Assembly: GCA_965221955.1 (NCBI GenBank) | Contig: CBDCTA010000026.1 | Coordinates: forward strand, 1 to 64,000 | From: Gammaproteobacteria bacterium | GTDB lineage: Bacteria > Pseudomonadota > Gammaproteobacteria > UBA4575 | Direction of reading: 5' to 3' | Length of the DNA stretch: 64,000 nucleotides | Shown here: piece after piece, positions 36,599-57,057 of the stretch | Layout of the letters: every line of letters begins with the position of its first letter | Numbering within the stretch: the stretch's first letter is position 1 | Notes under the pieces: model-generated | Seen by the model: the letters and a program-made list of their open reading frames with translations, nothing else | Database searches by the model: none | What the model was told of the DNA's origin: nothing | Program-made: the position numbers and the translations under genes

Positions 36599-37354
36599 AA
36601 GTTCTAATTGCGGCGAGAAGTTATGTATTTAGACGTTAGTATCCAACCTGAGTTCAGGAAATATTCTATAAACGAATAAGGCAATGAACTGTGACATGCC
36701 TTGCAAGTGTGCCTTAATTAATAGAAAAACTGTAATGAAATTTTCTATTTCTCAATAAAAAAATAAACAAACTTACGCGTCTTTATTGATGATCAAAAAA
36801 AGCTTATTTATAGTAGTTAATTAAACAATTACGCTAAGTAATTATTCTTTGGTAAATAATTTTAAATTACGAAATGCTCTTGAGAAAACTAAGGAATAGT
36901 CAGCGGCTTCAATAGATATTTCTTAAATTATACAAATATCTATTTTTTGACAGATGTAGCACTTCAAATGAGGAGTAAAGAATTTTAGTGAGCCAGTTAA
37001 TTGTTATTACATTATTTAACGCAAACTATTTCTATTGTAAAAAATGTAAATATTTGTTATTCGCAATGAGTCTTGGTCTATTTAAAGCCTACATCTTTGT
37101 CTGAATTGCCATAGCGTGAAAATTTATCTCTAAAATTATATTTATTAATCATTAAGTTACAAATTTACATAAAAAATAACTGCTAAGCCTATGTTAAACA
37201 CAAGTAAATTGTTGTAATTTCTTCCTATAACATTTAAAAATAAATGTATATTCATGCAGAATATTGCTAATAGTAATTATCTCGATAACCTTTCAAATAT
37301 ATAACTAGATAATCTCAAAAAAACTAAAATAAGCCTTACTAACTAGAGAGAGAA

Positions 37355-39262
37355 ATGGCTGCACATGGCGACGATAACAATACGGCATCTTTGATAGATA
37401 GAGTCTCTGAGCGGGACGATGATTTTGAACGAGTATTGGGTGAAGTTATTGATTTGCCCGCATCACTCGATGCACAAAAAAATTTATCAGAAGAACCATA
37501 CGAAATAGGTGACTTACTTGTTTCTTATTTAGAGCAGCTTGGCGTTGAGTTTGTGTTTGGTATTCCTGGTGGTGCAATTGAGCCTCTATACAATGCACTT
37601 GCTAGAAGTGAAAGAAGAGGTGGAGCGAAGTCTGTAGTAGCTCGGCATGAAACTGGTGCTGCATTTATGGCAGATGGTTATTCAAGAAATAGTGGTAACC
37701 TTGGGGTGTGTTGTGCAACAGCAGGACCAGGTGCTACAAACTTGATAACTGGTGTTGCTTCTGCGTTCGATAATCATTCACCAATGTTGGTGATCACTGC
37801 ACAAACCGCAATAGAAAACTTTGGTCGCAACGCGGCACAAGAATCCGCGGATACAGGAATTAATACAGTAGCAATGTTTGAGCATTGTACTCATTACAGC
37901 ACATTGGTTTCACATATTAATCAGTTTGAACAAAAACTCGCATCTGCAATTATGACGGCCTACCGCTCTCCTATGGGGCCCGCACATTTAAGCATTCCGC
38001 TTGATGTGTTAAGGCATCCAAGCTCTGCGCAATATCCTTCATATGACCTTTCAAGCTTGTTGTGGCAGCCAAGTCCGATTGATATGGATAGCTTGAACAT
38101 TTTTTGTGGAGAACTCTCGGCATCAAACAGTTTAGTTTTTATCGTTGGTGAAGGGTGTTCTCAAGGAATTGGTTCAATTTTAAATACTGCGTTGAAATTT
38201 AATGCCAAAATCGTAACCACACCACATGCGAAAGGCTTGGTGAGTCCGTATCATCCTTTATTCCGCGGCGTATTAGGTTTTGCAGGTCATGCTAGTGCAA
38301 TTGAGACGATAGATAGTGAAGTAGATACCATTGTTGCAATTGGTACCACATTAAGTGAAACAGCAAGTAATACTTGGGATCAAAAAGTATTAAATCAAAA
38401 GCTGATTCACATTGATTCTTCTGAAGATAACTTAATGCATTCCCCCATGGCACGGTTACATGTTAGGGGTGATATCGCAAAAATATTTGAACACGTCGAA
38501 ACGAAATTTGATATTCAAAAACCTTCTAGCTCAAACGATCGTGTAAGTTACGTTTCTAAAGAATTTAAAAGAAAATCTAAAAAGAAAGAAAAAACTTTGA
38601 AACATCATTTCGAGATGAATGATGTAGAGAAATGCAGTGATAATTCATCACCAATAAAGCCACAAAGGCTCATGCAGCTTTTGCCAAAAATATTTCCACC
38701 TGAAACTAAATACCTATGTGATTCAGGCAATAGTATGGCGTGGTCCATACATTATTTACATCCGTATGATCGAAGGTTAGCTGGATCTAGAGGTGAAAAT
38801 GGTGGATTGTTTTGGACATGTTTAGAATTTGGCTCCATGGGGTGGGCTATTGGCTCATCAATCGGTACGGCGCTTACAAACAGAAAACGGCCTGTTGCTT
38901 GTTTAACAGGTGATGGTGCTATGTTGATGTATGGTGGTGATGTAACCGTAGCGATACAAGAGAAATTACCTGTAGTGTTTATTGTTTTAAATGATTCCGA
39001 ATACGGGATGGTTAAGCACGGGCAAAGATTGGGTCATGCCGAAAGAGTGGGTTATAAACTTCCTGAAATTAACTTTGTTGAATTTGCGCATTCCATGGGA
39101 ATGAACGCACGTCGAATTAATACGGTTGTAGATTTGGAGAATCTTGACGTGAAAGAATTAATTTCCCACGGTCCTGCAATTTTGGAAGTCATGATTGATA
39201 AAGAAGAGGTACCACCAATAGACAGTCGACTAAAGGCTTTAGGTACAATTAACGGTAACTAA
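37355..39262 (+). CDS. Thiamine-diphosphate-dependent enzyme (acetolactate-synthase-like superfamily)
   Basis: FGIPGG, RHE..AAFMADGY, GPGATN, GSMGW, GDGAMLM...NDSEYGMV; no ilvH-like small subunit nearby. Confidence 0.9.
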   Translation: MAAHGDDNNTASLIDRVSERDDDFERVLGEVIDLPASLDAQKNLSEEPYEIGDLLVSYLEQLGVEFVFGIPGGAIEPLYNALARSERRGGAKSVVARHETGAAFMADGYSRNSGNLGVCCATAGPGATNLITGVASAFDNHSPMLVITAQTAIENFGRNAAQESADTGINTVAMFEHCTHYSTLVSHINQFEQKLASAIMTAYRSPMGPAHLSIPLDVLRHPSSAQYPSYDLSSLLWQPSPIDMDSLNIFCGELSASNSLVFIVGEGCSQGIGSILNTALKFNAKIVTTPHAKGLVSPYHPLFRGVLGFAGHASAIETIDSEVDTIVAIGTTLSETASNTWDQKVLNQKLIHIDSSEDNLMHSPMARLHVRGDIAKIFEHVETKFDIQKPSSSNDRVSYVSKEFKRKSKKKEKTLKHHFEMNDVEKCSDNSSPIKPQRLMQLLPKIFPPETKYLCDSGNSMAWSIHYLHPYDRRLAGSRGENGGLFWTCLEFGSMGWAIGSSIGTALTNRKRPVACLTGDGAMLMYGGDVTVAIQEKLPVVFIVLNDSEYGMVKHGQRLGHAERVGYKLPEINFVEFAHSMGMNARRINTVVDLENLDVKELISHGPAILEVMIDKEEVPPIDSRLKALGTINGN

Positions 39263-39373
39263 TTTAGTTTTAGTTATTTCAATTAGCCAATATTTCAATT
39301 GGCAAATAATAAAAACAAAAAATGTTTTGCAACTATGTTTTACAATATAGTGCTATGAAATCGAATAATAACC

Positions 39374-40186
39374 ATGTCAGCCGACAAAGATAAACAAGAA
39401 GTAATCCATACTAAAATCTGGAACGAAGAACCGGAGCCAGATAATCCTTTTGCAGCCAAAAAATGTTACTGCGCAGGGTACGATGTATATGGTGATCTTC
39501 TTGGTAAAGCTTCTTGGGCAGAATATTTATACTTATTATTTAAATTAAAAAAGCCTACACCTGAACAAGCAAAGTTACTCGAAACAATTGCTGTAGCAAT
39601 TGCTAACCCTGGAATTCGTGACCATAGCGTTCGCGCAGCAATGAATGCGGGAGTAGGCGGGTCAACTGCTGCGTCTGCGTTGATGGCTGCGTTGGCTGTT
39701 GGTGCCGGACAGTACGGAGGCGCGCGAGAAGTTTATATATTGTTGAAGCTCTGGAAAGAATGTAGTTATGACTTAGCAAAATGGAAACACGCAATTTTTA
39801 ATCCACCAAAATCAAATTCTCCAAGTGGCTGGCCTGATATTAATCACCCAATTGGATTTGATCCAAACTCAGATTGCTTCCCATTACCTTTTAAGCAAAC
39901 TCTAAATGAATTGATAAGTATTTCAAAGAGTAAATCCTTGGTTTGGTTGCTCAAGAATAAAAATGAATTGCAAGAAATTGCTGGTTGTCCATTGTCGTTA
40001 ACAAGTGTAATTGCTGCGGCACTTTTCGATTTAGGATTTGATTGTGAACAAGGTGAGATGCTCTATTTGTTGCTTAGATTACCTGGTGCTGCTGTACACA
40101 GCATTGAACAAAAACATATTGGTTGGCGAAATTTTCCATTTTATTTAAATGGTTTAGAGATATTAGATGACCCAGTTATTAAATAA
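39374..40186 (+). CDS. Citrate synthase/citryl-CoA lyase-fold protein 1
   Basis: GYDVYGDLLG, SVRAA, GAGQYGGA, RLPGAAVH pattern of the citryl-CoA lyase-like family. Confidence 0.7.
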   Translation: MSADKDKQEVIHTKIWNEEPEPDNPFAAKKCYCAGYDVYGDLLGKASWAEYLYLLFKLKKPTPEQAKLLETIAVAIANPGIRDHSVRAAMNAGVGGSTAASALMAALAVGAGQYGGAREVYILLKLWKECSYDLAKWKHAIFNPPKSNSPSGWPDINHPIGFDPNSDCFPLPFKQTLNELISISKSKSLVWLLKNKNELQEIAGCPLSLTSVIAAALFDLGFDCEQGEMLYLLLRLPGAAVHSIEQKHIGWRNFPFYLNGLEILDDPVIK

Positions 40187-40195
40187 GGAATAATA

Positions 40196-41011
40196 ATGGA
40201 AAGAAGTGATAAGTTTGGCCATAAAAGGTTGCTTGAGTTTGAAGATTTTTGTAAATCTAAGTTAGGAGGCTCTATTCCTGGTGAGCGTGCAGTGTTTCGA
40301 GGAAGGGATGTTTTTAATGAATTCAAACATTGGTCATGGTTAAAAATGCTTTATTTTTGCGTAATCGGGACTGAGCCAGCTGAAGAGACAGAAAAATTTT
40401 TAAATGGACTATATTGCACTTGTTTTAATTTTTCTGACCCTCGTATTTGGAATAACCGAGTGGCTGCTTTAGCAGCAACTGCTTCAAGCACTGCACAACT
40501 AGGAGTTTGCGCCGCATCTGCTATATCTGAAGCTGAAATATATGGGGGTCCACCCGTATCGGAAGCATTAAGCTTTTTACTTGAAGCAAAGAAAAAATTT
40601 GATAGAGGGGAAACAATTAAGGACATTGTTGATATTGAGTTAAACTCAAATGGAGTTTTATATGGGTTTGGTAGACCGATTAATAAAAATGACGAGAGAA
40701 TTATTCCAACTCTTAATCTGCTTAAAGAGCTTAACTTATACGATCGACCATATATTCAATTCGCATTAAAAATACAAAATGAATTGTTAAGCAGAAAAAA
40801 TAAAACAGGGTTTAATATTGGTGGAGTTATGGCGGCTTTCTGCGCTGATGATGGGATGACTCCAAAACAATTGTATCAATTGATGGTTGTTTGTTTTTAT
40901 GTGGGACAACTTGCTTGTTATATAGAATCAGATAGCAAAATTGTTGGGTCGTTTTATCCTTTACGGTGCAATAAAATTTCATACTCAGGGCACAAAGGAA
41001 AAGTTTGGTAG
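40196..41011 (+). CDS. Citrate synthase/citryl-CoA lyase-fold protein 2
   Basis: FRGRDV, DPRIWNNRVAALA, YGG, YGFGRP...DER, NIGG, terminal YSG. Confidence 0.7.
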   Translation: MERSDKFGHKRLLEFEDFCKSKLGGSIPGERAVFRGRDVFNEFKHWSWLKMLYFCVIGTEPAEETEKFLNGLYCTCFNFSDPRIWNNRVAALAATASSTAQLGVCAASAISEAEIYGGPPVSEALSFLLEAKKKFDRGETIKDIVDIELNSNGVLYGFGRPINKNDERIIPTLNLLKELNLYDRPYIQFALKIQNELLSRKNKTGFNIGGVMAAFCADDGMTPKQLYQLMVVCFYVGQLACYIESDSKIVGSFYPLRCNKISYSGHKGKVW

Positions 41012-41043
41012 TTCTATTAAGCAAGTTTGGGTAATAAGTAAGT

Positions 41044-42069
41044 ATGAAGATTGAAAATGACAATTCCAAATTAAATCATATTGATGATAAAAAATTGTGG
41101 GATATTATTGCTGGTTTATCTGGTTATCATGCCGTTATTATTGCGTATAGATTAGATATTTTCTCAATTCTAAATGATAAACCAATGAATATTGCTGATT
41201 TATCAAAAATGTTAGATATAAAATTACGGCCCGCTGAAGCATTAGTAAATACAAATTTAAATTTGGGTTTGATTGAACTAAGTGACAATAAATTAAAGTT
41301 GTCTGATATCGGTAAAAAATATCTTGTTAAGTCCAGCGATACCTATTTTGGACCTATGTTTGAGCTTGTTTCTAAAAATGAGCTAAGTTTTGAAAAAGTA
41401 CATGATGCTGTTTTGTCAAATAAACCTCAGGAATATGGTTCGGGCGATATATTTGAGTCACATGAAAAAAAATTTGAGCTGGCTAAAAAGTTTACTGAAG
41501 CGATGCATAGCTTGAGCGTAGCGCCGGCTTCGTCATGGGTAGAAAAAATAGACTTGGGTGAGAGTTCAATACTTTTAGATATTGGTGGTGGGTCTGGAGC
41601 CCATACAATTTCTGCGCTGAAAAGATGGCCAAATCTTGAAGGCATAGTGTTTGATATTGAACCAGTCTGTGAGGTTTGTGAATTAATGTTTAGTAAAAAT
41701 AATTTAAATTCGCGTGCTTCTACATCTAGTGGTGATTTTTGGAATGATGGCTATCCTTTTTCTGATTTACATTTCTATTCGCAAATTTTTCATGATTGGC
41801 CAGAAGATAAATGCAAGTTTCTCGCAAAAAAGAGTTTTGATTCACTACCCAGTAAGGGAAAAATTATTATTCATGAAATGCTTTATGATGATGATAAGCA
41901 TGGACCATTTGTGGCTGCCGCGTGTAGTGTTGCATTGTTATCATGGACCGAAGGAAAGCAATATTCTGGTCTAGAAATTAAGGAGTTTCTTGAAGAAGCA
42001 GGTTTTGCTGATATTGATATAATTCCAACATTCGGTTATTGGAGTGTCATTGTCGGCACTAAACTTTAG
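41044..42069 (+). CDS. SAM-dependent O-methyltransferase (Methyltransf_2, with dimerisation domain)
   Basis: LLDIGGGSG, GDFW, FHDW motifs. Confidence 0.9.
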   Translation: MKIENDNSKLNHIDDKKLWDIIAGLSGYHAVIIAYRLDIFSILNDKPMNIADLSKMLDIKLRPAEALVNTNLNLGLIELSDNKLKLSDIGKKYLVKSSDTYFGPMFELVSKNELSFEKVHDAVLSNKPQEYGSGDIFESHEKKFELAKKFTEAMHSLSVAPASSWVEKIDLGESSILLDIGGGSGAHTISALKRWPNLEGIVFDIEPVCEVCELMFSKNNLNSRASTSSGDFWNDGYPFSDLHFYSQIFHDWPEDKCKFLAKKSFDSLPSKGKIIIHEMLYDDDKHGPFVAAACSVALLSWTEGKQYSGLEIKEFLEEAGFADIDIIPTFGYWSVIVGTKL

Positions 42070-42342
42070 CTAAAGTGCGCTTTAGTTTCTATAAATAAAT
42101 ATTAAATTTAGGTTGTTTCCATACATACTAATTTTTTATCCGTTTGTCATTGAAATCTTGTGATCCACGGTATCAATATTCCGATACGTGTTGTCTTTAA
42201 TTCTCGCCTAACTCCTTAAAATAAGGTGCATTAATTTGTATTTTCGCTTGCCGAGCGAGACGAAGTCTCGCCCCTAGATTAAATAAAATTCTATTTGGGA
42301 AAGTGAAGGGAATAAAAATGTACGACATCAAGGAGTGTCAGC

Positions 42343-44466
42343 ATGAAACATCTTACTTTTATAAATTACAATTTTTTATTAATTGTCACTTTATTATTTA
42401 GTGTAACGAATATTGCTTACGCTGATTATGATGACGATGAAGAAGAAGCACTTATTGAGCTATATGGAGATGAAGAAACTATTAGTATAGCTACAGGTAC
42501 AGCTCAACCGATATCACGTGCTCCAGCTGTGGCAACTGTTATAACAGCAAAAGATATTAAGGAAATGGGTGCTACAGATATTGATGAGGCGCTAGAGACA
42601 GTTCCAGGTCTGCACGTATCAAGAAACTTCTTTGCAAATGGTCCAATTTATACTTTCCGTGGTATTTATGCTGTGAGTAATCCACAAGTCTTGATGTTAG
42701 TAAATGGAATATCTGTAAATAATATTTGGCAAGGAGATAGAAGTCTTCTATGGGGAGGAATGCCTGTTGAAGCTATTTCGAGAATTGAAGTTATTCGAGG
42801 GCCTGGTTCTGCAGTCTATGGTGCAGATGCATTTTCGGGTGTAATTAATATCATTACTAAAGAGGCTGCAGAAATTGATGGTTTTGAATTTGGTTCTAGA
42901 GTTGGAAGTTTTGATACAAAAGATATTTGGGCATTGTATGGAGATAAAGTCAGGGGATTTGATGTTGCATTTTCTCTCGAAGGTAGACAGACAGATGGGC
43001 ATGATGAAGATATAGAATCTGATTTTCAGTCTTTCTTAGATGGTGTAACCGCAACAAATGCATCACTAGCTCCTGGATCTACGAATAATGAAAGGGATTG
43101 GATTGATGCTCGTTTAGATATTTCAAAGGGAAATTGGAAGTTTCGTGCTGGATTACAAAGTAGAGAGAATGTTGGTGCTGGTGTAGGTGCGGGGGAATCA
43201 CTAGATACAAATTCAGAATACAGCAGCAAAAGATGGAACGCAGATTTAACTTACAATAATAATAACTGGATCGAAAATTTAGATTTAACGTCACAACTTA
43301 GCTTTTTTAATTCAAGTCAGGAAGTTGATAAAGACCAAGTTTTATTTCCACCTGGTGCAATTGTGCCTGGATTAGGTGGTCCATTCCCAGAAGGATTAAT
43401 TGGTAATCCTGAGTTATGGGAAAGGCATATTCGATATTCTACCACAGCATTATTTAATGGTGTTCAAAATCATCAGATTAGAACAGGTATTGGTTATACA
43501 CATAGTGAAATATATAAGGTAAAAGAAGAGAAAAATTTTGGATTAGACGGAAACGGTGTACCGATTCCAATCGGGAGTTCTCCAGTTGATGTTTCAGATA
43601 CACCTGCAGTATTTTTGCCTGAAAAACACAGAAATAACAGTTTTATGTTTGTGCAAGATGTTTGGCAAATCAGTAATGATTGGGAGCTCACTGCTGGTTT
43701 ACGCTATGACGACTACAATGATTTTGGAGATACTTGGAATCCTCGTGCAGCACTTGTTTGGGCAGCAAGACATGATCTAACAGCAAAGCTGCTTTATGGT
43801 GAAGCGTTTCGTGCTCCTTCATTAGGTGAGTTTAGATTACAAAATAATCCAGTAACCCTTGGAAATGATGAATTAGACCCAGAAGAAATTAAAACGCTTG
43901 AGTTAGCATTTGATTATCGGCCAAAGGATAACTTAACACTTGGATTGAATTTATTTAAATACGAATGGGATGACATTATTCAATATGCACCTAACCCTAG
44001 TTTGCCTGTTGGCTCATTACAAGCACAAAATATTGGCGAACAAGAAGGTTATGGGTTTGAATTTGAATTTGATTGGAAAGTATCTAGAACCTTGAATATT
44101 TTAGGCAACTTTGCCCATCAAGATTCTGAAGATCAGACGACAGATGAAGACTCTGGTAATGCCCCAGAAAATCAATTCTATGTACGAACAAACTGGGAGT
44201 TTGCTCCTGGTTGGAGTCTATCACCACAATGGAATTTTGTAATGGAACGAAAGAGAGTTGATGGTGATATGCGAAGTAATATTGAAGACTATGATATGTT
44301 GGACCTTACTTTACGTCATAAGTCTTTTAATGGTCGTTGGGAAGTTGCTCTTTCTGGGCGAAATGTTTTAAACAAGCGTGCATTTGAACCTGCTAGCACT
44401 AGTATTCCTGGTGACTTACCTTTGGCACGAAGAAGCGTATGGGGGGAGTTGCGATTTAATTATTAA
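42343..44466 (+). CDS. TonB-dependent receptor
   Basis: Signal peptide, plug (APAVATVIT, VPGL, RIEVIRGPGSAVYGADA..GVINIIT), barrel, C-terminal aromatic; AAGGAG RBS. Confidence 0.93.
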   Translation: MKHLTFINYNFLLIVTLLFSVTNIAYADYDDDEEEALIELYGDEETISIATGTAQPISRAPAVATVITAKDIKEMGATDIDEALETVPGLHVSRNFFANGPIYTFRGIYAVSNPQVLMLVNGISVNNIWQGDRSLLWGGMPVEAISRIEVIRGPGSAVYGADAFSGVINIITKEAAEIDGFEFGSRVGSFDTKDIWALYGDKVRGFDVAFSLEGRQTDGHDEDIESDFQSFLDGVTATNASLAPGSTNNERDWIDARLDISKGNWKFRAGLQSRENVGAGVGAGESLDTNSEYSSKRWNADLTYNNNNWIENLDLTSQLSFFNSSQEVDKDQVLFPPGAIVPGLGGPFPEGLIGNPELWERHIRYSTTALFNGVQNHQIRTGIGYTHSEIYKVKEEKNFGLDGNGVPIPIGSSPVDVSDTPAVFLPEKHRNNSFMFVQDVWQISNDWELTAGLRYDDYNDFGDTWNPRAALVWAARHDLTAKLLYGEAFRAPSLGEFRLQNNPVTLGNDELDPEEIKTLELAFDYRPKDNLTLGLNLFKYEWDDIIQYAPNPSLPVGSLQAQNIGEQEGYGFEFEFDWKVSRTLNILGNFAHQDSEDQTTDEDSGNAPENQFYVRTNWEFAPGWSLSPQWNFVMERKRVDGDMRSNIEDYDMLDLTLRHKSFNGRWEVALSGRNVLNKRAFEPASTSIPGDLPLARRSVWGELRFNY

Positions 44467-44508
44467 TCAAACTAAAAATTAAATTTGTTTTGATTAGTAG
44501 TTACAACA

Positions 44509-45477
44509 TTGCGTAACACTCACTTTAATCGATACTTAGTGTCTCTATATGGCGTGAAAAATGCCGTATGGAGTTTTTTGCTATTTACGATATTAATTTC
44601 CTTTCCTAGTTTTGCGGCAACTCCTTCCGTTGCGGTGATCTACCCAGAATTACGTGCACCTTACAACAAAATTTACGACGACATTGCAGAAGGTGTAGAA
44701 AAACATGCCAATGGTCAAACGAAAAGATATAAGTTAACAAAAAACTATTCTCCACAAAAACTTAACGAATGGGTTGAAAGAAACAATATAAAAGTTGCTG
44801 TTGCACTTGGAAAAGGTGGCGAAAAAGCAATTGGGCAATTAACGCAAAACATTCCCGTTGTGTTAAGTGGCGTATTAAAACCTAAGTCACCTAATTATTA
44901 TGGTATCTCTTTAGCAGCATCACCCGATAAATTATTTAAAGAACTAAAAAAACAAAATTCGGAAATTAAACGAGTCATCGTTGTTTACAACCCTAAGAAA
45001 ACCGAATGGCTTATTCGTCAGGCGAAAACTGATGCAATTAATAATAATTTAGAGCTCATTACCTTTACGACAATGAGTCTTTCAGAGTCTGCAAAAATTT
45101 ATCGTGAAGTGTTTACGAGATCTGACATCAATATATCAGCAATTTGGTTGCCCCCGGACAGGTATTCAGTAGATAACAAGGCAATCCTATCTTACATTCT
45201 TGAGCAGTCTTGGGCGAAAAATGTGGCAGTGTTTTCAAGCAGTCCAGCCCATGTAAACAAAGGTGTTTTATTTGCAATGTATCCTGACAACAAAAAACTG
45301 GGAGAAAGTTTGGGTGCGTATGCATTGGATGAGCTTAATGGTGATTCAAAATTGGACAAGATGATTCCTGTTGAAGATCTAAAAATTGCATTTAATAGAC
45401 GAACAGCAGAACACCTAGGCATTAAATTTAGAACTGATGATTTGCGTCGATATGATGCAGTTTTTCCAGCAGAGTAA
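44509..45477 (+). CDS. Periplasmic ABC-type substrate-binding-like protein associated with the sensor
   Basis: Signal peptide, AVALG, AIWLPPD, GVLFAMYPD, N..TAEHLGI; start uncertain. Confidence 0.75.
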   Translation: MRNTHFNRYLVSLYGVKNAVWSFLLFTILISFPSFAATPSVAVIYPELRAPYNKIYDDIAEGVEKHANGQTKRYKLTKNYSPQKLNEWVERNNIKVAVALGKGGEKAIGQLTQNIPVVLSGVLKPKSPNYYGISLAASPDKLFKELKKQNSEIKRVIVVYNPKKTEWLIRQAKTDAINNNLELITFTTMSLSESAKIYREVFTRSDINISAIWLPPDRYSVDNKAILSYILEQSWAKNVAVFSSSPAHVNKGVLFAMYPDNKKLGESLGAYALDELNGDSKLDKMIPVEDLKIAFNRRTAEHLGIKFRTDDLRRYDAVFPAE

Positions 45478-45480
45478 GTA

Positions 45481-48400
45481 ATGATTCATCCAATTAAAAT
45501 ATTTAAGCAATTTTATACGAGTGGTTTTAAAGAGCAACTTGTTACTACTTTTTTGATTGGCATTTTCATTACTGCTGCGTTATCAACCTATTTAATTTCT
45601 TCATTTACTTCGAGCAAGGTTGAAGAAAAAGTTGAAAACGAAGGGTTTCAAATCACACGCGATTTTGCAGATAGAAACACTTTGGCATTACTATATTTTA
45701 GTGAAGAAAGTGCAAGAGAAAATGTAGAAGCAATTAAAAATTTCCCAGATGTTAAAGGTGTTGCGGTATACGATGCTCAGAAGAAACCATTAATTGAAGA
45801 TGGTGAAAATACATTTTCAAAGGAGGGTGAAAACTGGCCAACGGAAATGAAATTAATTTCTGAAACGAAAGATGATTGGTATTTTGCATCACCTGTATAT
45901 GCGCGAGGCACCGATCCTGTTATTGCGGAATCACCTTTCATTGATACTGATGAAGTAGAAGAGCGTGAGTTATTGGGTTATGTGCGTGTGCATATGAGCA
46001 AAGAAAGTCTGCATGCTCTCGAAAATACTATCCTAAAAATAACTATCATGATCACGTTAGTGTTGTCTGTGATTTTAGCTGTAGTGCTGTGGACAACAAC
46101 GGACCGCGTTGTTAAACCACTTAAACAATTGGCCGGATTTATGCGTGAAGCAGAAGAAGGGAATATGGGTATCCGCTCTGAGCTATGGGGCCCTAGAGAT
46201 ATTACTAAAATGCAGAATGCATTTAATACGATGATCAAAGCATTGGGAGATCGTGAGCATAATTTAGAAAGTGCACGCCAATCTGCGCTTCAATATGCGC
46301 ATGCTAAAGGAGAGTTTGCAGCAAACGTAAGCCATGAGTTGCGTACTCCTTTAAATGGTATTATTGGCATGCTCGATATTCTTAAAGATACAGAATTAAG
46401 TGCTAAGCAAAAAGAATATGTAAATGTTGCACAAGATTCAGGAGATGCGCTTCTTAGCTTGATTGATGATGTGCTCAATTTTTCTAGAATGGATTCTGGA
46501 AAGATTGAGATTGAACACGAGCAGTTTAATTTGCGTGAAATGTTGGATGACATTATTGGTATTTTAACGGGTCATGCGTCATCAAAAGATCTTGATCTCG
46601 CATACATCATTGATAAAAACGTACCGAGCCATCTCAAAGGTGATGTGAGCCGTATTCGTCAGTTGTTAATCAACTTAGGTGGGAATGCTGTTAAGTTCAC
46701 TGAAAAAGGTGAGATAGGATTCCAAGTGAGTAAAGCTGCGGTGCAAAGTCGTCATTTAGTTTTGAGATTCGAAGTACGTGATACTGGAGTTGGGATTACT
46801 GAAGATGCACAAAATAAGATTTTTGAAGCATTTCAACAAGCTGATGCGTCTACAACCAAGAAATTTGGTGGCACAGGGTTAGGGCTGGCAATTTGTAAAC
46901 AATTAGTTGAATCCATGCGCGGGGAAATTGGAGTTGAAAGTGAAGCTGGTAAAGGTAGTACTTTCTGGTTTGAAATTCCATTTAAAGAAATGCCATCAAC
47001 TGTAAACACATTAGACGTGAGGCACTCCACAGCTTCGGGATTGCGTATTTTTATAGTTGATGACAGTGAAATGGTGCGTGAGAATTTACAACAAACTTTT
47101 GAAGGATGGGGTGCTTTTGTTGGTAGTGCAAAGAGTGGTAATGAAGCAGTAGAGCTTTTGCGTTCCGCAAGTGAGCGTAAAAGGCCATTTGATGTCGCTT
47201 TTATAGACGAATTAATGGGTGATTCGAATGGTATTGAGTTGATTCGTTCTATTACGAAAGATGCAAGTATTGCACCGATGAAATTAGTGTTAATGACAAA
47301 TCAAATTAATCCAGAGGCATTTATAGACCGTTTTAGAGAGATTGATGCTTATGTTAAAAAACCATTGCGTCAGTCAAACGTATTCAATTGCATCGCTGAT
47401 TTAATCAATATGCCTGTGGTGCAACATACAGATAAAAATGACATTGCTCCAGGTGCAACAGATATACCTAATTTCAATGCTACTTTATTAATTGTTGAAG
47501 ATAATCGTGCTAACCAACAAGTCGCACAAGCTATGTTCGAAAGGCTTGGTTGTAAATGTTCGATCGCAAGTAATGGAATTGAAGCATTAAAGTTATTAGA
47601 ACAAGCGGAATACGATGCGGTATTTATGGATTGCAATATGCCTGAGATGGATGGCTATGAAACTACAAACAAAATAAGGCAACTACCGAGTGAAATTTCG
47701 CAGATTCCAATTATTGCAATGACGGCAAACGTGCTTAAAGGTGATCGTGAAAAATGTATCCAGTCAGGTATGAACGATTACACAAAGAAACCATTGAAGC
47801 TTGAAAAACTGATTGAAAAACTCAGCCGTTGGGTTGGTGAAGGGTCTATTGAGAAATATACAGAAGAAGAGAGCTCGTTGATTACTTTGATAGAAGATTC
47901 TGCATTAGTAGACACTGCAGAGCATCATGCCATTGATAGAGATACGGTAGATATATTGAAAGAAAACGTTGGTGATGGTTTCAATGACATGGTCCAAGTT
48001 TATATTGATGACATGGAGATTCTGCTTCGTTCGCTTGAAAAGAGTGTGCAAGAAAAAGACCCAAGTTCATTGCGGCATTATGCGCATAGTATAAAAGGCA
48101 GTAGTTCAAACTTCGGTGCGAGTAGATTAGTGCATCTTGCGAAGCAGCTTGAGGCAATTGGTAAAAATGATTCTGTAGAGGGTGCACATGATTTAGTTCA
48201 AGCAATATTCCCTCAGGCTGCATTTGTTATTAGTGAATTAAGGAAAGAAATTAATTTAACAAAAGAAGACACCCTGTTAATGCAAAAGAGCACAGAGAAG
48301 ATTCTTATTGCAGATGACGACCGAAGTATGCGCGTGGCTTTACAAAATGTTTTGGCGACAGATGGTTACGAAATTGAATCAGTTGCGGATGGTATAGAGG

Positions 48401-50001
48401 CTGTTAAACGCTGTGAGCAAGATATGCCAGGATTAATTTTATTGGATGCCATGATGCCTAATTTAAATGGTTTCGATGCATGTAAAAAAATACGCATGTT
48501 AAGGGGTGGTAAACATGTACCTATTCTAATTGTTACTGCATTAGAAGATGATAGTTCTATCGAAGAAGCATTTGATTCGGGCGCAACAGACTTTATCTCA
48601 AAGCCTGTTCATTTTGCTGTAATGCGACAACGCGTTTCACGCTTATTGAAGGCGAGTCGTGCTGAAGTGCATGTGCGTGAGTTGGCCTATAACGACTCCC
48701 TTACTGGGTTGCCAAATCGAACCATGTTTATTGACCAGATGAATAAACTGATTAAGAAAGTACGCCCGCAAGCCCATATGTTGGCTGTGTTGTTTTTAGA
48801 TTTGGATCGCTTTAAATATGTAAACGACTCATTGGGTCACAGCGTTGGGGATATGTTATTAAAACAAGTTGCTGAAAGAATACTAAGTTGTGTGCGTTCG
48901 GCAGATACTGTGGCAAGGTTGGGTGGAGATGAGTTCACCTTGGCATTAGATGGCATAGAAGATAAAAGTGTAGTCGCAAATATAGCGGATAAGATTTGTC
49001 GTCGAGTAGGGGAACCTTATTCATTTGCAGGCAAAGAAATATATGTCTCAGCGAGTATTGGTATTTCATTGCACCCTGATGATGGGACCAATATTGGTGA
49101 ATTGATGAAGCGCGCTGATACCGCAATGTTCAAAGCTAAAGAGCGCGGCGGGAGTTTCTTATTCTATGAGCCCGAAATGGAAGCGGTAGTAACCAACAAA
49201 GTAGAAATTGAACAAGACTTGCGTCACTCATTAGACCGAGAAGAGCTGGATGTTTTCTATCAACCTAAGTTAAATTTACAAACCTCTAAGGTCGAGGGTC
49301 TAGAAGCTCTAGTTAGATGGAATCATCCTGAAAAAGGGCAAGTTGGACCAAATGATTTTATTCCATTAGCAGAAGAGACGGGGCTGATATCTGAAGTGGG
49401 ATTATGGGTGTTAATTAGTTCGTGTGTGCAAATGCAATCTTGGATTGATAAAGGTTATGACCCTATGCCTGTGTCGGTAAACCTATCTGGCAGACAACTT
49501 GAAAATGGCGATATTGCTGCGCAAGTTGCACACGTATTAGCAGAGTCAGGCTTAAAGCCCGAATATTTAGAGTTAGAAATAACTGAAAGCATCATTATGA
49601 AACGCCCTGAAGAAGTGATTTCAATTCTGCATCAATTAAAAGCGATGGGCGTAAAACTTTCGATTGATGATTTTGGTACAGGGTATTCGTCACTAAATTA
49701 TTTGCGCAAATTCCCGATTGATTTGCTTAAGATTGATAAAGCCTTTATACGCGATGTTGCTACGAACAAAGAAGATCGTTTAATCGTTAAGGGAATTATT
49801 GCTTTAGCCAAGAGTTTAAATCTCGAGGTTTTAGCAGAGGGAGTTGAAACAATTGAGCAACAAACCTTCCTCAGAGACGAAGGCTGTGACTATATTCAGG
49901 GCTACTATATTGGTAAACCGATGAAGAGCAGCGATTTTGAACAAGAGTTTATTCTTTCTAACCGCAGCAACATTGAATTGATCTCAAATTATCGCAAGTA
50001 A
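45481..50001 (+). CDS. Hybrid sensor kinase / c-di-GMP enzyme: TM-HAMP-HisKA-HATPase-REC-REC-HPt-REC-GGDEF-EAL
   Basis: [22 protein letters not shown], three receiver domains, [30 protein letters not shown]. Confidence 0.95.
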
Positions 50002-50510: not shown

Positions 50511-52388
50511 ATGGATACATTTCCTAGTCTTTTCTTACAACAAACCAGAACAAGATCTAACGATCTAGCGATTCGATATAAACATCATGGATTATGGAAA
50601 TCGTGGACATGGAGTGATGTAAACACCAATGTTACTGAGCTTGCATGTGGTCTTGCATCTAAAGGATTAAAGCCAAACGAAAATGTTGCCATCATAGGTA
50701 ACAACATCCCACAACTTTATTTCGCAATGATCGCGGTGCAGTGTTTAGGTGCAGTACCTGTTCCTATTCATCCAGATTCAAATACACAAGAACTTGTTAC
50801 TTTTTTAAATAACTGTGAAGCGAAGTTTGCAATCGTTCAAGATCAGCAGCAAGTAGATGCGCTTTACGATGTGATAGATAGGTGTGAAAACTTAGAAGAG
50901 ATTATATACAACGATGGTCGTGGCATGACGGAATATGACCATTCACACTTAAGTAGTTTTGAAGAAATGCAGGAAATGGGTAAAAAGTTTGCTCAAGAAC
51001 ATGTCAGTTTTTTTGAAGATGTCACATCAAAAGTTACACAAGATTCCGACGCTTTCATACTTTACACAGCAGGCACATCGGGAACTGCACGCGGAGCTGT
51101 GCATACGCATGGTAGTTTAGTTAATACGGGTATGGCGTTTGCTAGCCAAGAGAAGATTAAACAAGATGAACAAGTGTTAGCATTTTTGCCTCTCTCTTAT
51201 GCGGCAAATACATTATTTACCTATACGCTTTGGTTGTTGAAAGGGTTCACTATCAATTGCCCTGAAAGTAACGAAACTATTATGAATGATCTTCGTGAAA
51301 TAGGTCCGACATTAATTTACGCACCACCACATTTTTACAAACAGCTTCATGCAGAAATCACATGGAGAGGGCAAAGGTCTTCGACATATTGGTTTGATAA
51401 ATGGTTCAGGATTGCTACTAAAAATAGACAAAAGTTTTTAAACGGAGAAAACTTGTCCCTAGTTGATAAGATTAAATGGGGCATGGGACAGCTTTTAATG
51501 TATCAGCCATTAAAAAATGTTTTTGGTTTAAGCAAACTTCGAAAAGCATATGTTGGCGGAGATATGCTGAATAGTGAAGTATTTAATTTTTTACGTTCTA
51601 TAGGCGTTCATATTAAAAAAACATATGGGACAACAGAAAGTGCAGGCTTCATTAGTATTCAAGGGTGGGAGCAGTTAAATACTCCTGCGGGCGAGTATAT
51701 TTTGGGTAAACCTTTGTCTGGAATTGATGTTAAGAAACTAGATAATGGTGAAATAGTTTTTAGAGGAATTAATGCATTTAAAGAATATTGCAATGATCCT
51801 GAGGCTACAGCAGCAGTAAAGGATTCTGATGGTTGGGTTAGAACAGGTGATGCTGGAGATATTGATAGTATAGGTGCAATTAGAATAACAGATCGAGTAG
51901 ATGCAATTGGCAAGTTTAGCAATGGTGAAAGTTTTGCCCCACATCTTGTAGAAAATGCATTGAAGTCTTCTCCTTATATTCAAGAAGCTGTTGCGGTTGG
52001 AGAAGGGCATGATGCTATTGTGGCATTTATAGTAATTGATGGGGTTACAGTTGGTAGTTGGGCAGAAGTAAATAATGTTCGCTTTGCTGGATATAAAGAT
52101 TTAGCAACACAGAAAGAAGTTTATGACTTAGTAAAGAAAACAGTCGAAGATGTAAATGCTCATATGGGTCAAATTGAAGGTGAGCATTGTCCACGAATTT
52201 CTCGATTTGTATTAATGCATAGAGAATTCTTGGTAGATCAAGGTGAGATTACAAGATCACGTAAAATTAAACGCGATGTGGTAATGGGAACGCATCAAGC
52301 ATTAGTAAATGCCATGTATTCAGCGCAACAGAAAGTTGAAATTTCAGAGGCAGGTCAAACTGCAGAGTTAAGAATTGAATCTACCTAA
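50511..52388 (+). CDS. Long-chain acyl-CoA synthetase (AMP-binding)
   Basis: YTAGTSG, YGTTE, GWVRTGD, ITDR, ENALKSSPYI, GEITRSRK. Confidence 0.88.
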   Translation: MDTFPSLFLQQTRTRSNDLAIRYKHHGLWKSWTWSDVNTNVTELACGLASKGLKPNENVAIIGNNIPQLYFAMIAVQCLGAVPVPIHPDSNTQELVTFLNNCEAKFAIVQDQQQVDALYDVIDRCENLEEIIYNDGRGMTEYDHSHLSSFEEMQEMGKKFAQEHVSFFEDVTSKVTQDSDAFILYTAGTSGTARGAVHTHGSLVNTGMAFASQEKIKQDEQVLAFLPLSYAANTLFTYTLWLLKGFTINCPESNETIMNDLREIGPTLIYAPPHFYKQLHAEITWRGQRSSTYWFDKWFRIATKNRQKFLNGENLSLVDKIKWGMGQLLMYQPLKNVFGLSKLRKAYVGGDMLNSEVFNFLRSIGVHIKKTYGTTESAGFISIQGWEQLNTPAGEYILGKPLSGIDVKKLDNGEIVFRGINAFKEYCNDPEATAAVKDSDGWVRTGDAGDIDSIGAIRITDRVDAIGKFSNGESFAPHLVENALKSSPYIQEAVAVGEGHDAIVAFIVIDGVTVGSWAEVNNVRFAGYKDLATQKEVYDLVKKTVEDVNAHMGQIEGEHCPRISRFVLMHREFLVDQGEITRSRKIKRDVVMGTHQALVNAMYSAQQKVEISEAGQTAELRIEST

Positions 52389-52433
52389 GTTAAATAAGAT
52401 TAAAAAGTAAAAACATATAGCTGGAAGTTATAA

Positions 52434-53225
52434 GTGAGTAGTATAGCAAACGGAAAAGAACCACATATGGTGATCGAGAATATCGATCTAGCATTTGGTG
52501 GTACAAAAGCAATTACTGATATCAGTTTCACTGTTTATAAAGGTGAAATTTGTGCCGTAATAGGACCTAATGGTGCAGGTAAAAGCTCTATGTTGAATGT
52601 AATTAATGGTGTTTATATTCCGCAACAAGGTTCCATTACCTATGAAGGTAAAAAATTCAACAAGATGAAACCACACTCTGCTGCGGTAATGGGTATCGGC
52701 CGTACTTTCCAAAATATTGCGTTGTTCTCAGGAATGTCTGTTGTTGAAAATATCATGACAGGTCGAAATCTGATGATGAAATCAACTTGGATTGAAAATG
52801 CACTAGGTATTGGTCGTAGTAAAAGAGAAGAGCTAGAGCATAGAGAGGCTTGTGAAGAAATTATTGAGTTCTTGGGTTTGCAATCCATTCGCAAAACTCA
52901 AGTTTCTGCATTGTCATATGGATTGCAAAAACGTGTAGAACTTGGTCGTGCCTTAGCTGCTGAGCCAAATATGTTGTTGCTTGATGAGCCGATTGCTGGG
53001 ATGAACATTGATGAAAAGCTAGATATGGCATGTTTTATCCAGGAAATAAATCGAAATAAAGGCACTACTATCGTGCTTATTGAACATGATATGGGTGTAG
53101 TAATGGATATCTCAGATCATGTTGTTGTAATGGACTATGGTGAAAAAATTGGTGATGGCACACCTGAAGAAGTTAAAAATAATCAAAAAGTAATTGATGC
53201 ATACTTAGGTGTCAGTCATGACTAA
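52434..53225 (+). CDS. Liv-type ABC transporter ATP-binding subunit (LivG-like)
   Basis: GPNGAGKS, RTFQ, LSYGLQKRVELGRAL, LLDEP, IEHDM. Confidence 0.93.
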   Translation: MSSIANGKEPHMVIENIDLAFGGTKAITDISFTVYKGEICAVIGPNGAGKSSMLNVINGVYIPQQGSITYEGKKFNKMKPHSAAVMGIGRTFQNIALFSGMSVVENIMTGRNLMMKSTWIENALGIGRSKREELEHREACEEIIEFLGLQSIRKTQVSALSYGLQKRVELGRALAAEPNMLLLDEPIAGMNIDEKLDMACFIQEINRNKGTTIVLIEHDMGVVMDISDHVVVMDYGEKIGDGTPEEVKNNQKVIDAYLGVSHD

Positions 53226-53263
53226 TCGACAACTTAAGTGTATAGCTTAGTAGGAGCGCAAGA

Positions 53264-54241
53264 GTGGAATTTCTTACCGATCTAATTTCAATTTTTACAA
53301 CCGATGGTATGTTTTCACCATTTGGTATGGAGACACTGATTGCAGGAATGCTGTCGGGAGTCATGTATTCACTGGTTGGAATTGGATTCGTACTAATTTA
53401 CAAATCATCAGGTGTGTTCAACTTTGCGCAGGGTACTATGTTGTTGTTTGCGGCATTGACCTATGTGAGTTTGACAGAACGTCAAGTGAATCCAGTAGTA
53501 GCTTTTGCGATCACAACCGTTGTCATGATTATTATGGGAATTGTCATTGAGCGTACTGTAATGAGGCCATTAGCCAACCGAGATTTATTATCATTGTTTA
53601 TGGCAACAGTGGGATTGAACTATTTCTTGGAAGGTTTGGCTCAAGGTACTTGGGACTCTGCAGTACATGGTTTAGATCTTGGTATTCCAAGTGATCCAAT
53701 ATTTGTTGCAGATGTTGCTAAAGAAACCTTTGGTTGGGAAAGCCCTTGGTTTGATATTTTGGTAAGTAAGTTTGATGGCTTTGCGGCCATAACTGCATTA
53801 CTCATGGTTGGTGGTTTGTACGCCTTTTTCCAATATACGCGTACAGGTTTATCACTGCGTGCGGTATCGGATGATCATATGGCTGCGCAGGCGGTTGGCA
53901 TTCCACTATCCAAAATTTGGGCGATTGTATGGGCGGTAACTGGTGTGATCACATTTATCGTTGGCATGATTTGGGCAGACCGCCTTAGTGTGTCATTCAC
54001 CTTAACTTGGGCAGTATTGAAAGGTTTGCCGGTAATTCTTATTGGTGGTTTGACCTCAATTCCGGGTTGCATTGTTGGTGGCTTAATTATTGGCGCAAGT
54101 GAAAAACTTGGCGAAATATATTTTGCAGAATTATTTGGTGGTCAAGGAATTGAACACTGGTGGGCGTATTTAACGGCACTTGTATTTATTTTAATTCGTC
54201 CAACTGGAATATTTGGTGAACGCGAAATTGAACGTGTTTAA
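53264..54241 (+). CDS. Liv-type ABC transporter permease (LivH-like)
   Basis: YKSSGVFNFAQG, GLSLRAVSDD, RPTGIFG. Confidence 0.92.
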   Translation: MEFLTDLISIFTTDGMFSPFGMETLIAGMLSGVMYSLVGIGFVLIYKSSGVFNFAQGTMLLFAALTYVSLTERQVNPVVAFAITTVVMIIMGIVIERTVMRPLANRDLLSLFMATVGLNYFLEGLAQGTWDSAVHGLDLGIPSDPIFVADVAKETFGWESPWFDILVSKFDGFAAITALLMVGGLYAFFQYTRTGLSLRAVSDDHMAAQAVGIPLSKIWAIVWAVTGVITFIVGMIWADRLSVSFTLTWAVLKGLPVILIGGLTSIPGCIVGGLIIGASEKLGEIYFAELFGGQGIEHWWAYLTALVFILIRPTGIFGEREIERV

Positions 54242-54289
54242 CAAATAAATAAAGAATAATTAAATAAAGAATTTTAGTAGAGAAAATTA

Positions 54290-55402: not shown

Positions 55403-55481
55403 TAAACGGGTAAGGATAAGAATAAAAAGTTTTTTTGTATTTGTTTTCTAATTCGTTTTTAAATAAATATGAAAATGTAAG

Positions 55482-55497
55482 TAGCTTGCGCAAGCTA
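55482..55497. promoter_or_regulatory. Perfect 16-bp palindrome upstream of the binding-protein gene
   Basis: TAGCTTGCGCAAGCTA. Confidence 0.35.
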
Positions 55498-55533
55498 TTT
55501 TTTAACTAAGAAACTCTCTTTGGAGGAGTACAC

Positions 55534-56883: not shown

Positions 56884-56910
56884 GATTTAAATATAAGTTT
56901 TAAATCATTT

Positions 56911-56963
56911 ATTTCTTCGCAGCCGGTCAGCCTAAATTAGTTGACCGGCTGTTTGAAGAAAAT
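56911..56963 (+). terminator. Stem-loop after the binding-protein gene (partial terminator or mRNA stabiliser)
   Basis: TTTCTTC-GCAGCCGGTCA...TGACCGGCTGT-TTGAAGAAA. Confidence 0.6.
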
Positions 56964-57057
56964 AGATAGTTAAAAAAGGAGTGAATTCTGATTTGTTAAA
57001 GCGATTTAATAACTAATAAATCAGAGTTTTCTTGAAAAAGATTTAAGGGAAATAGTT

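Follow-up and report, generated by a model that had tools for sequence, protein, structure and literature searches.

Does a gene cluster in which putative biosynthetic genes stand directly before an outer-membrane receptor and a sensor kinase with a cyclic di-GMP (c-di-GMP) output encode both the source of a small molecule and the apparatus to perceive it? The question is raised by a 64,000-nt stretch of the gammaproteobacterial contig CBDCTA010000026.1, here called the window, the coordinates of which are used throughout. According to the open reading frame (ORF) listing of the window, seven ORFs lie co-oriented on the + strand at 37355-50001, all of them present where a preliminary description had placed them. 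They encode a thiamine diphosphate (ThDP) enzyme, two small proteins with the fold of citryl-CoA lyase (CCL), designated CCLa and CCLb, an O-methyltransferase, a TonB-dependent receptor (TBDR), a periplasmic solute-binding protein (SBP) and a membrane sensor kinase (Table 1). The preliminary description had supposed that the first four genes make a methylated, diffusible molecule which the last three import and sense; its family assignments for the ThDP enzyme, the O-methyltransferase, the TBDR, the periplasmic binding protein and the GGDEF-EAL hybrid kinase were confirmed by Pfam. In our judgement the locus is probably, if far from certainly, a self-contained make-and-sense module feeding c-di-GMP.

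The conservation of the gene linkage carries most of the argument. A CCLa profile search of contigs representing one genome per species gave 401 confirmed relatives, of which the best 80 were kept; the records of these 80 loci are labelled Porticoccaceae, Cycloclasticus, Methylococcaceae, Chromatiales, Sedimenticola, Hahella, Fluviicoccus, Colwellia and others. Linkage was counted only for loci with enough flank, and a second count dropped ten loci that share the mltF flank of the window. Loci of the window's own family prove nothing on linkage, because there synteny extends over the entire neighbourhood, with guaA-tadA-mltF flanking one end and ACS-livG the other. Among all loci and, correspondingly, among those with different flanks, CCLa is accompanied by a ThDP gene in 68/68 and 58/58, by CCLb in 69/69 and 59/59, by a TBDR in 56/57 and 47/48, by an SBP in 46/52 and 37/43, and by a kinase match in 46/49 and 38/41. 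The sole receptor-less locus is a Nannocystis contig (L085), and the SBP is absent from six loci (L074, L078, L079, L085, L093 and L094). Since the arrangement is conserved within unrelated flanks, it is more than chance. When the ORFs of the 80 loci were clustered, every other family was confined to 10 loci at most, and no exporter, permease, DNA-binding regulator or sigma/anti-sigma factor is conserved. Recurrent linkage of enzymes and sensors, which the preliminary description had proposed to look for in other neighbourhoods, is thus what these loci display, in the second gene order described below as well.

The genome-wide distribution points in the same direction. In an even sample of 400 scored genomes of the class (one more was left unscored), 40 carry CCLa (E<=1e-20), 54 the SBP (E<=1e-20) and 49 a ThDP ortholog (E<=1e-90); ThDP enzyme and SBP co-occur in 45, CCLa is found with a ThDP ortholog in 39 of its 40 carriers, and all three are present in 36. 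If two genomes flagged as unpublished, G063 (all three) and G165 (SBP only), are set aside, the counts become 39 for CCLa, 52 for the SBP, 48 for the ThDP enzyme and 44 for ThDP enzyme plus SBP, of 398. A merely inherited adjacency of two functionally unrelated halves would be in keeping with the conserved guaA-tadA-mltF and ACS-livG flanks in the window's family, but the linkage holds with wholly different flanks, in several gene orders and in many families, the genes co-occur genome-wide, and they decay jointly in one relative (G020, below), which makes this explanation hardly credible. On such comparative evidence, the coupling of the synthesis and sensing genes is strongly supported. In a literature search, judged by its search results only, no paper came up that deals with the module, with PF04392-kinase-receptor triads or with BbmA/CsmA.

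Which parts of the module are constant became apparent from its variants. A second order, ThDP-TBDR-CCLa'-CCLb'-SBP-kinase, was found in L111, L113, L114 and L115, and a further arrangement, with the ThDP gene on the opposite strand, in L116 and L117; the CCL proteins of these rearranged loci (L111, L113-L117) are 25-34% identical to those of the window. Other loci have no CCL genes at all and show instead ThDP-SDR-KASIII-TBDR with the SBP-kinase pair alongside (L106), ThDP, a 131-aa ORF, KASIII, TBDR and SBP (L118), or ThDP, a class-I methyltransferase, TBDR, SBP and kinase (L110). In Hahella (L093) an SDR gene follows CCLb. The PF00891 O-methyltransferase lies beside CCLa in just 8/51 loci (3/42 with different flanks) and in three positions: after CCLb (the window, L020, L027), in the receptor/SBP gap (L026, L064) or in the ThDP/CCLa gap (L054, L062). 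The 'methylated' product of the preliminary description hence describes this lineage and not the system, and its synthetic unit of four genes does not hold either: the ThDP enzyme alone is constant, and the citrate-synthase-fold pair is non-canonical and replaceable.

The sensory side varies as well, and its type can change with the enzymes and the TBDR retained. In the type represented by L053, a short kinase is combined with a separate REC-REC-PAS-GGDEF-EAL gene, and in L047 and L118 genes for REC-SpoIIE, STAS and MCP-like proteins accompany the kinase. A YfiR-like DUF4154 protein takes the place of SBP and kinase in L126 and L128, the latter also with an adjoining CHASE8-PAS-GGDEF-EAL gene, and Hahella (L093) has a CHASE8 kinase and a REC-GGDEF-EAL protein in place of the SBP-kinase pair. 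The combination of a TBDR with a YfiR-like DUF4154 protein and a CHASE8 sensor (L126:14887-15450 and L128:9680-12637) resembles a general trans-envelope sensing cassette able to substitute for the SBP and the sCache_4 kinase; a literature search returned no paper combining at least two of the terms DUF4154, CHASE8 and TonB-dependent.

In the tree of the ThDP enzymes (FastTree, with many unresolved forks) the variants nest among canonical members, and the partners were therefore exchanged several times. FastTree phylogenies of the SBP and of the TBDR, made to compare receptor clades with the enzyme variants, have low resolution and cover few variants. By gene content, the constant core is the ThDP enzyme, the TBDR and the sensor, with the CCL pair as a replaceable part and the O-methyltransferase as an accessory, lineage-specific one. 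Such a fixed scaffold enzyme, with accessory enzymes that can be swapped and a cognate receptor next to it, is the pattern of a diversifying small-molecule pathway, and variable tailoring around a constant core recalls natural-product clusters. The receptor-less, myxobacterial Nannocystis locus (L085, 3-8910) is a case of its own: it contains ThDP, CCLa, CCLb, two tandem CCLb-CCLb fusions (507 and 576 aa) and a second CCLa-like gene, without TonB receptor or sensor, and looks like a cluster for a secondary metabolite in which these enzymes are put to use.

The ThDP enzyme deserves special attention. Its translation carries the RHE...GY motif with the catalytic Glu and the cofactor-binding GDG...ND motif. 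It scores below all NCBIfam cut-offs, and the top models are acetolactate synthase (ALS; 260 versus 538 bits), ScyA-related (256 versus 1000 bits) and guanidino-oxopentanoate decarboxylase. The closest solved relatives are BbmA (8x3x, 3e-77) and CsmA (8x3z, 2e-75), with ALS behind at 8e-57. Two further ALS-like genes of the same genome are just 25-27% identical to it, and the module-linked ThDP enzymes all group in a single clade that excludes these paralogs (FastTree, support 97). A housekeeping ALS (IlvB/AlsS) was rejected as the identity of the window's enzyme, given the score below the cut-off, the low identity to the genome's own ALS-like genes and the separate clade. BbmA, CsmA and the ScyA-related enzymes are thus the closest solved or named relatives, whereas the distance from the cut-off sets the module enzyme apart from the ScyA family itself. 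ScyA-type enzymes join two 2-oxo acids into an acyloin; we know of no enzyme among BbmA, CsmA and the ScyA-related proteins that works with citrate-synthase-fold partners or a receptor. No signal peptide was seen in the translations of the module's enzymes.

Three other neighbourhoods of the ThDP gene were noted. In 5-8 Cycloclasticus-like loci (among them L096:5100-7785, L036, L039 and L060) it adjoins sucB-lpd, located upstream, and in genome G312 (L122:5873-9932) it has sucA-sucB downstream; proximity to 2-oxoglutarate dehydrogenase genes may reflect a 2-oxoglutarate substrate, or just lineage synteny. In two loci from one genus (L119:8647-12691 and L121:8399-12440) a ThDP ortholog (40-42% identical) stands alone, convergent with genes for a FIST-domain protein and a soluble histidine kinase, which would make a cytoplasmic, not a periplasmic, sensing partner.

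Of the CCL pair, neither CCLa nor CCLb has a Pfam match, including PF00285, at E<=0.001. The NCBIfam citryl-CoA lyase model recognises both far below its cut-off of 212 bits (CCLa, E 2e-16, 60 bits; CCLb, E 2e-12, 47 bits), and profiles of 14 CCLa and 26 CCLb sequences match the Hydrogenobacter thermophilus citryl-CoA lyase (PDB 6hxp) at 5e-10 and 4e-12, respectively. With the CCLa model, Foldseek placed 6hxp first at 3.7e-7 and found CCL modules of ATP-citrate lyase too, all matches being CCL modules; this monomer model has a predicted local distance difference test (pLDDT) score of 66, its most conserved segment (81-112) is disordered, and it was used for fold confirmation only. According to HMMER alignment to 6hxp, the catalytic His (HGG), His (GYGH) and Asp (NVD) are replaced in CCLa by Tyr/Leu, a non-His residue and Thr/Ser, and in CCLb by a residue other than His, by Arg or a gap, and by Ala, while the C-terminal Arg...PG...His motif is retained in CCLa. 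In the rearranged loci the CCLa' proteins keep a His in an AHLGG motif in 5/6 cases. CCLa and CCLb are distant paralogs (hhalign probability 97%, 21% identity). The preliminary description had called them two citrate-synthase-fold proteins, and automatic database names read only 'citrate synthase family'. The citryl-CoA-lyase fold is confirmed by 6hxp, NCBIfam and Foldseek; that they are functional lyases or synthases is not, the catalytic residues being gone and the scores under the cut-off. Compared with the H. thermophilus enzyme and the CCL module of ATP-citrate lyase, the pair thus shares the fold and a weak sequence similarity and is unlike them in lacking the catalytic His/His/Asp, in forming an a/b paralog pair and in being fused to ThDP enzymes.

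These fusions are informative. Seven of the eight longer CCLa relatives are proteins of 858-901 aa in which TPP_enzyme N/M/C domains are followed by CCLa (e.g., P0130); in genome G073 such a ThDP::CCLa ORF (L132:4276-6936, 886 aa) overlaps the following CCLb gene by 4 nt. The eighth (P0283) is a CCLa::CCLb fusion, and the Nannocystis locus has tandem-fused CCLb-like proteins. Because ThDP::CCLa and CCLa::CCLb fusions exist, we read them as evidence that ThDP enzyme, CCLa and CCLb may act as a single complex. Between the ThDP and CCLa genes of three related loci (L034:9228-9764, L037:9174-9710, L065:9342-9893) lies an IS200-like Y1 transposase gene (PF01797, ~180 aa), neither flanking gene being visibly broken.

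The receptor has its plug at residues 58-167 and its barrel at 280-675, and Pfam detects no STN or other N-terminal signalling extension. A signal peptide and a TonB-box-like stretch are visible in its translation, orthologs are 38-71% identical across all variants, and TonB_C was found three times in the genome. The closest solved relatives are catecholate and B12 transporters (CirA at 1e-26, PirA, BtuB and FepA). The SBP likewise carries a signal peptide, is present in a single copy in the genome (tblastn) and has no conserved partner permease among the 80 CCLa loci. Its model (pLDDT 93) has 3lkv, 3lft with bound L-Trp, and 6hni/6hnj (CD0873, a tyrosine-binding protein) as the nearest folds, and LsrB and ribose-binding folds among the further matches. 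An orphan SBP gene directly upstream of a membrane kinase with a periplasmic domain is the layout of SBP-dependent sensor-kinase pairs. The kinase translation is intact, with the H-box, the Hpt His, the REC Asp residues, GGDEF with an RxxD I-site, EAL, DDFGTG and EGVE, so that the motifs of active GGDEF and EAL domains are present, as judged from the translation. BarA, TorS, LuxQ and DibA are its nearest NCBIfam models, all below cut-off, and the sCache_4 domain recurs in orthologous kinases.

What might the product be? Affinity of the ThDP enzyme to ScyA-related proteins and to BbmA/CsmA, the PF00891 methyltransferase and the SBP folds, including Trp-bound 3lft and CD0873, hint at an acyloin derived from aromatic 2-oxo acids. 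The citrate-binding fold of the CCL proteins, the need for TonB and the ThDP gene beside sucB-lpd or sucAB in two settings hint at a polycarboxylate chelator derived from the tricarboxylic acid (TCA) cycle. The latter leads to a different account of the locus, in which the product is a metal chelator, an alpha-hydroxy-carboxylate metallophore from TCA-cycle 2-oxo acids, the receptor imports its metal complex, and the SBP-kinase pair reports metal availability to c-di-GMP; it would parallel pyoverdine/FpvA or ferric-citrate/FecA signalling by a two-component route. A TBDR beside synthesis genes is the classic layout of such systems, the receptor's best solved relatives are the catecholate and B12 transporters named above, citrate-synthase-fold proteins bind citrate- or oxaloacetate-like acids, the ThDP gene beside sucB-lpd (5-8 Cycloclasticus-like loci) and sucA-sucB (L122) hints at a 2-oxoglutarate substrate, and the receptor-only pattern of some genomes resembles siderophore piracy. 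Nevertheless, no variant contains a nonribosomal peptide synthetase (NRPS), an NRPS-independent siderophore (NIS) synthetase, a reductase or an inner-membrane importer, and tailoring by PF00891 O-methylation, KASIII and SDR would be unusual for carboxylate chelators. Nor are Fur boxes of the E. coli type enriched upstream of the ThDP gene (mean best mismatch 7.70 versus 7.89 in shuffled sequences, n=70) or of the TBDR gene (7.69 versus 7.86, n=62), and the spacer of the window contains no Fur-box-like site beating shuffles; the scan covered the E. coli-type consensus. We regard the metallophore, including its parallel with FpvA and FecA, as unlikely.

The two halves of the module are lost in an asymmetric manner. 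Enzymes without a receptor are rare, with one case in the 48 different-flank loci, and the reverse does occur. Ten SBP-positive genomes without CCLa at 1e-20 were re-searched at 1e-3, and 8/10 again gave no CCLa. Within this class of genomes the assembly is broken at the module in G315 and G109, and G312 has its ThDP gene elsewhere in the genome. Decay is seen in other relatives. G020, a 1.5-Mb relative with the flanks of the window, has lost the enzymes together with approximately the N-terminal four fifths of the TBDR, and its kinase homolog is interrupted by in-frame TAA and TAG stops; an alternative genetic code was rejected as the cause of these stops, TAA and TAG being mixed. Several module genes are broken in L112 and L117, and L125 is interrupted by an IS66 element. 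A receptor kept by almost all producers, the existence of receptor-only genomes and loss as a unit are together what is expected of a secreted signal or public good. The separate occurrence of the halves, which the preliminary description had regarded as incompatible with its proposal, is hardly seen from the enzyme side (receptor in 47/48) and is seen from the other, as sensor halves without enzymes in some genomes.

The latter genomes also bear on the possibility that TBDR, SBP and kinase sense an exogenous compound, the ThDP and CCL proteins being a co-regulated output that converts or detoxifies it, or a c-di-GMP-controlled complex. Sensors stand without enzymes in G098, G325 and G346, CCLa and CCLb resemble non-catalytic ligand-binding subunits that could be regulatory, and an exporter is not conserved. 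Set against this, the module has no conserved inner-membrane importer to supply cytoplasmic enzymes, a single ThDP clade that exchanges KASIII, SDR and methyltransferases of two kinds bears the mark of diversifying synthesis and not of catabolism, and the enzymes are next to never separated from the receptor (47/48), the reverse being the case in some genomes. Sensing of a foreign compound is, in our view, distinctly unlikely.

Several observations weigh against a make-and-sense module nonetheless. G098, G325 and G346 have the SBP-kinase pair, with or without the receptor, and no detectable ThDP gene, nearby or genome-wide, or CCLa; ThDP orthologs conversely occur without a receptor, beside FIST and kinase genes (L119, L121) or sucAB (L122). 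Because SBP-kinase pairs exist without ThDP or CCLa, and ThDP orthologs away from any receptor, the two halves can, as far as gene content tells, function apart. CCLa and CCLb are without the catalytic residues of their family, so the term 'biosynthetic' rests on the ThDP enzyme and the tailoring genes. An exporter is not conserved among the 80 CCLa loci. An acyloin of two 2-oxo acids would be porin-sized, and the need for TonB is a better fit to a metal chelate or a much larger product. Finally, all evidence is comparative, the relatives are not independent of each other, and most genomes are fragmented metagenome-assembled ones.

For the make-and-sense module, which we continue to prefer, the following course of events can be outlined. 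From its family, the cytoplasmic ThDP carboligase would join 2-oxo acids into an alpha-hydroxy-keto (acyloin-type) scaffold, in complex with a CCLa/CCLb heteromer that has presumably lost its citrate-synthase chemistry. The heteromer might, more speculatively, bind, guide or further convert the intermediate, and the O-methyltransferase, again judged by family, would tailor the product in the window's lineage. The compound would then exit the cell, and the dedicated TBDR would bring it back across the outer membrane. The periplasm is its likely destination, because no inner-membrane importer is conserved in the module. By analogy with LuxP/LuxQ, TorT/TorS and NspS/MbaA, the orphan PF04392 SBP could bind it there and dock on the kinase's sCache_4 domain, and an internal His-Asp-His-Asp relay would, likewise by analogy, set the balance of GGDEF and EAL and hence c-di-GMP. 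On this view the product would be diffusible and would itself be the ligand, and it might act as a quorum signal.

How does this arrangement compare with known systems? In LuxP/LuxQ (autoinducer-2, AI-2) and TorT/TorS (trimethylamine N-oxide, TMAO), a periplasmic binding protein is docked on a hybrid sensor kinase. The module resembles them in its orphan SBP gene directly 5' of a membrane hybrid kinase with internal phosphorelay, in the proximity of this kinase to TorS and LuxQ models, albeit with scores under the cut-offs, and in the LsrB and ribose-binding folds matched by its SBP. It differs in the PF04392 family of the SBP, for which docking is predicted by analogy, in the sCache_4 domain, in a fused GGDEF-EAL output instead of a DNA-binding regulator, and in the added synthesis operon and dedicated TonB receptor. 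In NspS/MbaA of Vibrio cholerae, a polyamine-binding SBP controls a GGDEF-EAL protein; there and in YfiR/YfiN a periplasmic partner governs c-di-GMP turnover, and YfiR-like DUF4154 and CHASE8-GGDEF-EAL proteins are found in some module variants. Unlike these systems, the module has a kinase phosphorelay between sensor and output and its own receptor and synthesis genes.

Siderophores signal through TonB-dependent transducers in the pyoverdine/FpvA-FpvR-PvdS and ferric citrate/FecA-FecR-FecI systems. As in these, a self-made or scavenged secreted compound would be recognised at the TBDR, synthesis and receptor genes are clustered and receptor-only genomes exist, whereas the module has neither STN nor an anti-sigma/ECF sigma pair, inner-membrane importer, NRPS or NIS enzyme or Fur-box signal, and its signalling would run from SBP to kinase to c-di-GMP. 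In CqsA/CqsS and LqsA/LqsS, a synthase dependent on pyridoxal phosphate (PLP) makes an alpha-hydroxyketone that is sensed directly by the membrane helices of a kinase, with no receptor, SBP or c-di-GMP domains. If the product of the module is an acyloin, it too would be an alpha-hydroxyketone sensed by a hybrid kinase; unlike CqsA/CqsS, the module has no CqsA-like domain and has a ThDP synthase, a receptor, an SBP and a c-di-GMP output. The preliminary description was correct that the circuit is not of the LuxI, LuxS or CqsA type, and no such Pfam family was found in any of the seven proteins. It is a tentative, rather doubtful extension of these comparisons that the loci represent a new class of signalling between cells, with a wide distribution among Gammaproteobacteria of marine and sediment habitats, in which alpha-hydroxyketone-type autoinducers made by ThDP enzymes, with lineage 'dialects' introduced by the pseudo-citryl-CoA-lyase pair, KASIII, SDR or methyltransferases, would be sensed only after active TonB-dependent uptake by an SBP-kinase pair feeding c-di-GMP, the receptor-only genomes being eavesdroppers.

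Table 1 Features of the module and its upstream spacer in the window
Feature	Coordinates	Strand	Evidence or remarks
AT-rich spacer	36599..37354		756 bp; separates divergent mltF-like gene from ThDP gene
ThDP-dependent carboligase, acetolactate-synthase superfamily, 635 aa	37355..39262	+	Pfam TPP_enzyme_N/M/C
CCLa, citryl-CoA-lyase-fold protein, 270 aa	39374..40186	+	NCBIfam, PDB 6hxp, Foldseek
CCLb, distant paralog of CCLa, 271 aa	40196..41011	+	NCBIfam, PDB 6hxp, hhalign
Small-molecule O-methyltransferase, 341 aa	41044..42069	+	Methyltransf_2, PF00891, Pfam 7.6e-34
TonB-dependent outer-membrane receptor (TBDR), 707 aa	42343..44466	+	Pfam Plug + TonB_dep_Rec_b-barrel
Periplasmic solute-binding protein (SBP), 322 aa	44509..45477	+	Pfam ABC_sub_bind, PF04392
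Membrane sensor kinase, 1506 aa	45481..50001	+	sCache_4, HAMP, HisKA-HATPase, REC, REC, Hpt, REC, GGDEF, EAL
sCache_4 periplasmic domain of kinase, residues 47-178	45619..46014	+	Pfam 7.1e-05
Kinase output, GGDEF residues 1069-1224 and EAL residues 1245-1480	48685..49920	+	Pfam 4.3e-48, 6.8e-77

The spacer upstream of the module had been described as about 750 bp of very AT-rich non-coding DNA, which agrees with its measured length and its GC content of 0.28-0.29, compared with about 0.36-0.44 in the module genes. It holds no ORF of at least 80 aa, only six short ones of 25-62 aa. Against six same-genus loci it is alignable only in conserved blocks at approximately 36689-36745, 36807-36849 and 37132-37265, the last of which contains an AACAC...GTGTT-like palindrome 100-220 nt 5' of the ThDP start; from their conservation, the blocks are candidate promoter or operator sites. 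The first two, near the mltF-like gene, are almost invariant across the seven same-genus loci and could be an mltF promoter or a small RNA, without an Rfam match. An Rfam scan of the window gave only a tRNA, located elsewhere, and the sole sub-threshold match in the spacer was RT-6 (17.5 versus 46.7 bits). Consensus scans were uninformative both for promoters (24 promoter-like sites versus 48.5 expected) and for terminators (11 versus 8.7 expected), and a repeat search in the spacer gave weak AT-rich pairs only. Downstream of the module, at 50511-57864, are genes for an AMP-binding acyl-CoA synthetase and for a set of Liv-type branched-chain amino-acid ABC transporter proteins; their synteny with the module is confined to the window's family, and they stand outside the conserved unit.

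Overall, new here are the constant core, the swaps of the CCL pair for KASIII with or without SDR or for a methyltransferase, the fusions, the loss of catalytic residues, the asymmetry between the halves and their joint decay. To our knowledge, only a minority of TonB receptors, of orphan periplasmic binding proteins and of c-di-GMP sensor kinases have a known ligand; here a candidate ligand source is encoded beside one of each, in approximately one tenth of the sampled gammaproteobacterial genomes (ThDP enzyme plus SBP in 45/400). If the make-and-sense module is real, it would link a self-made metabolite to c-di-GMP by a new route and give the citrate-synthase fold a new role, in which a non-catalytic or re-tooled protein is the partner of a ThDP enzyme. 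It would also be a tractable system, with Porticoccus litoralis DSM 25064 (locus L048, of canonical layout), Hahella spp. and Fluviicoccus keumensis DSM 105135 as cultured carriers. Hydrocarbon degraders, methanotrophs and sulfur oxidisers are among the carriers, so that switches of biofilm and lifestyle in bacteria of environmental importance may be under the control of the module.

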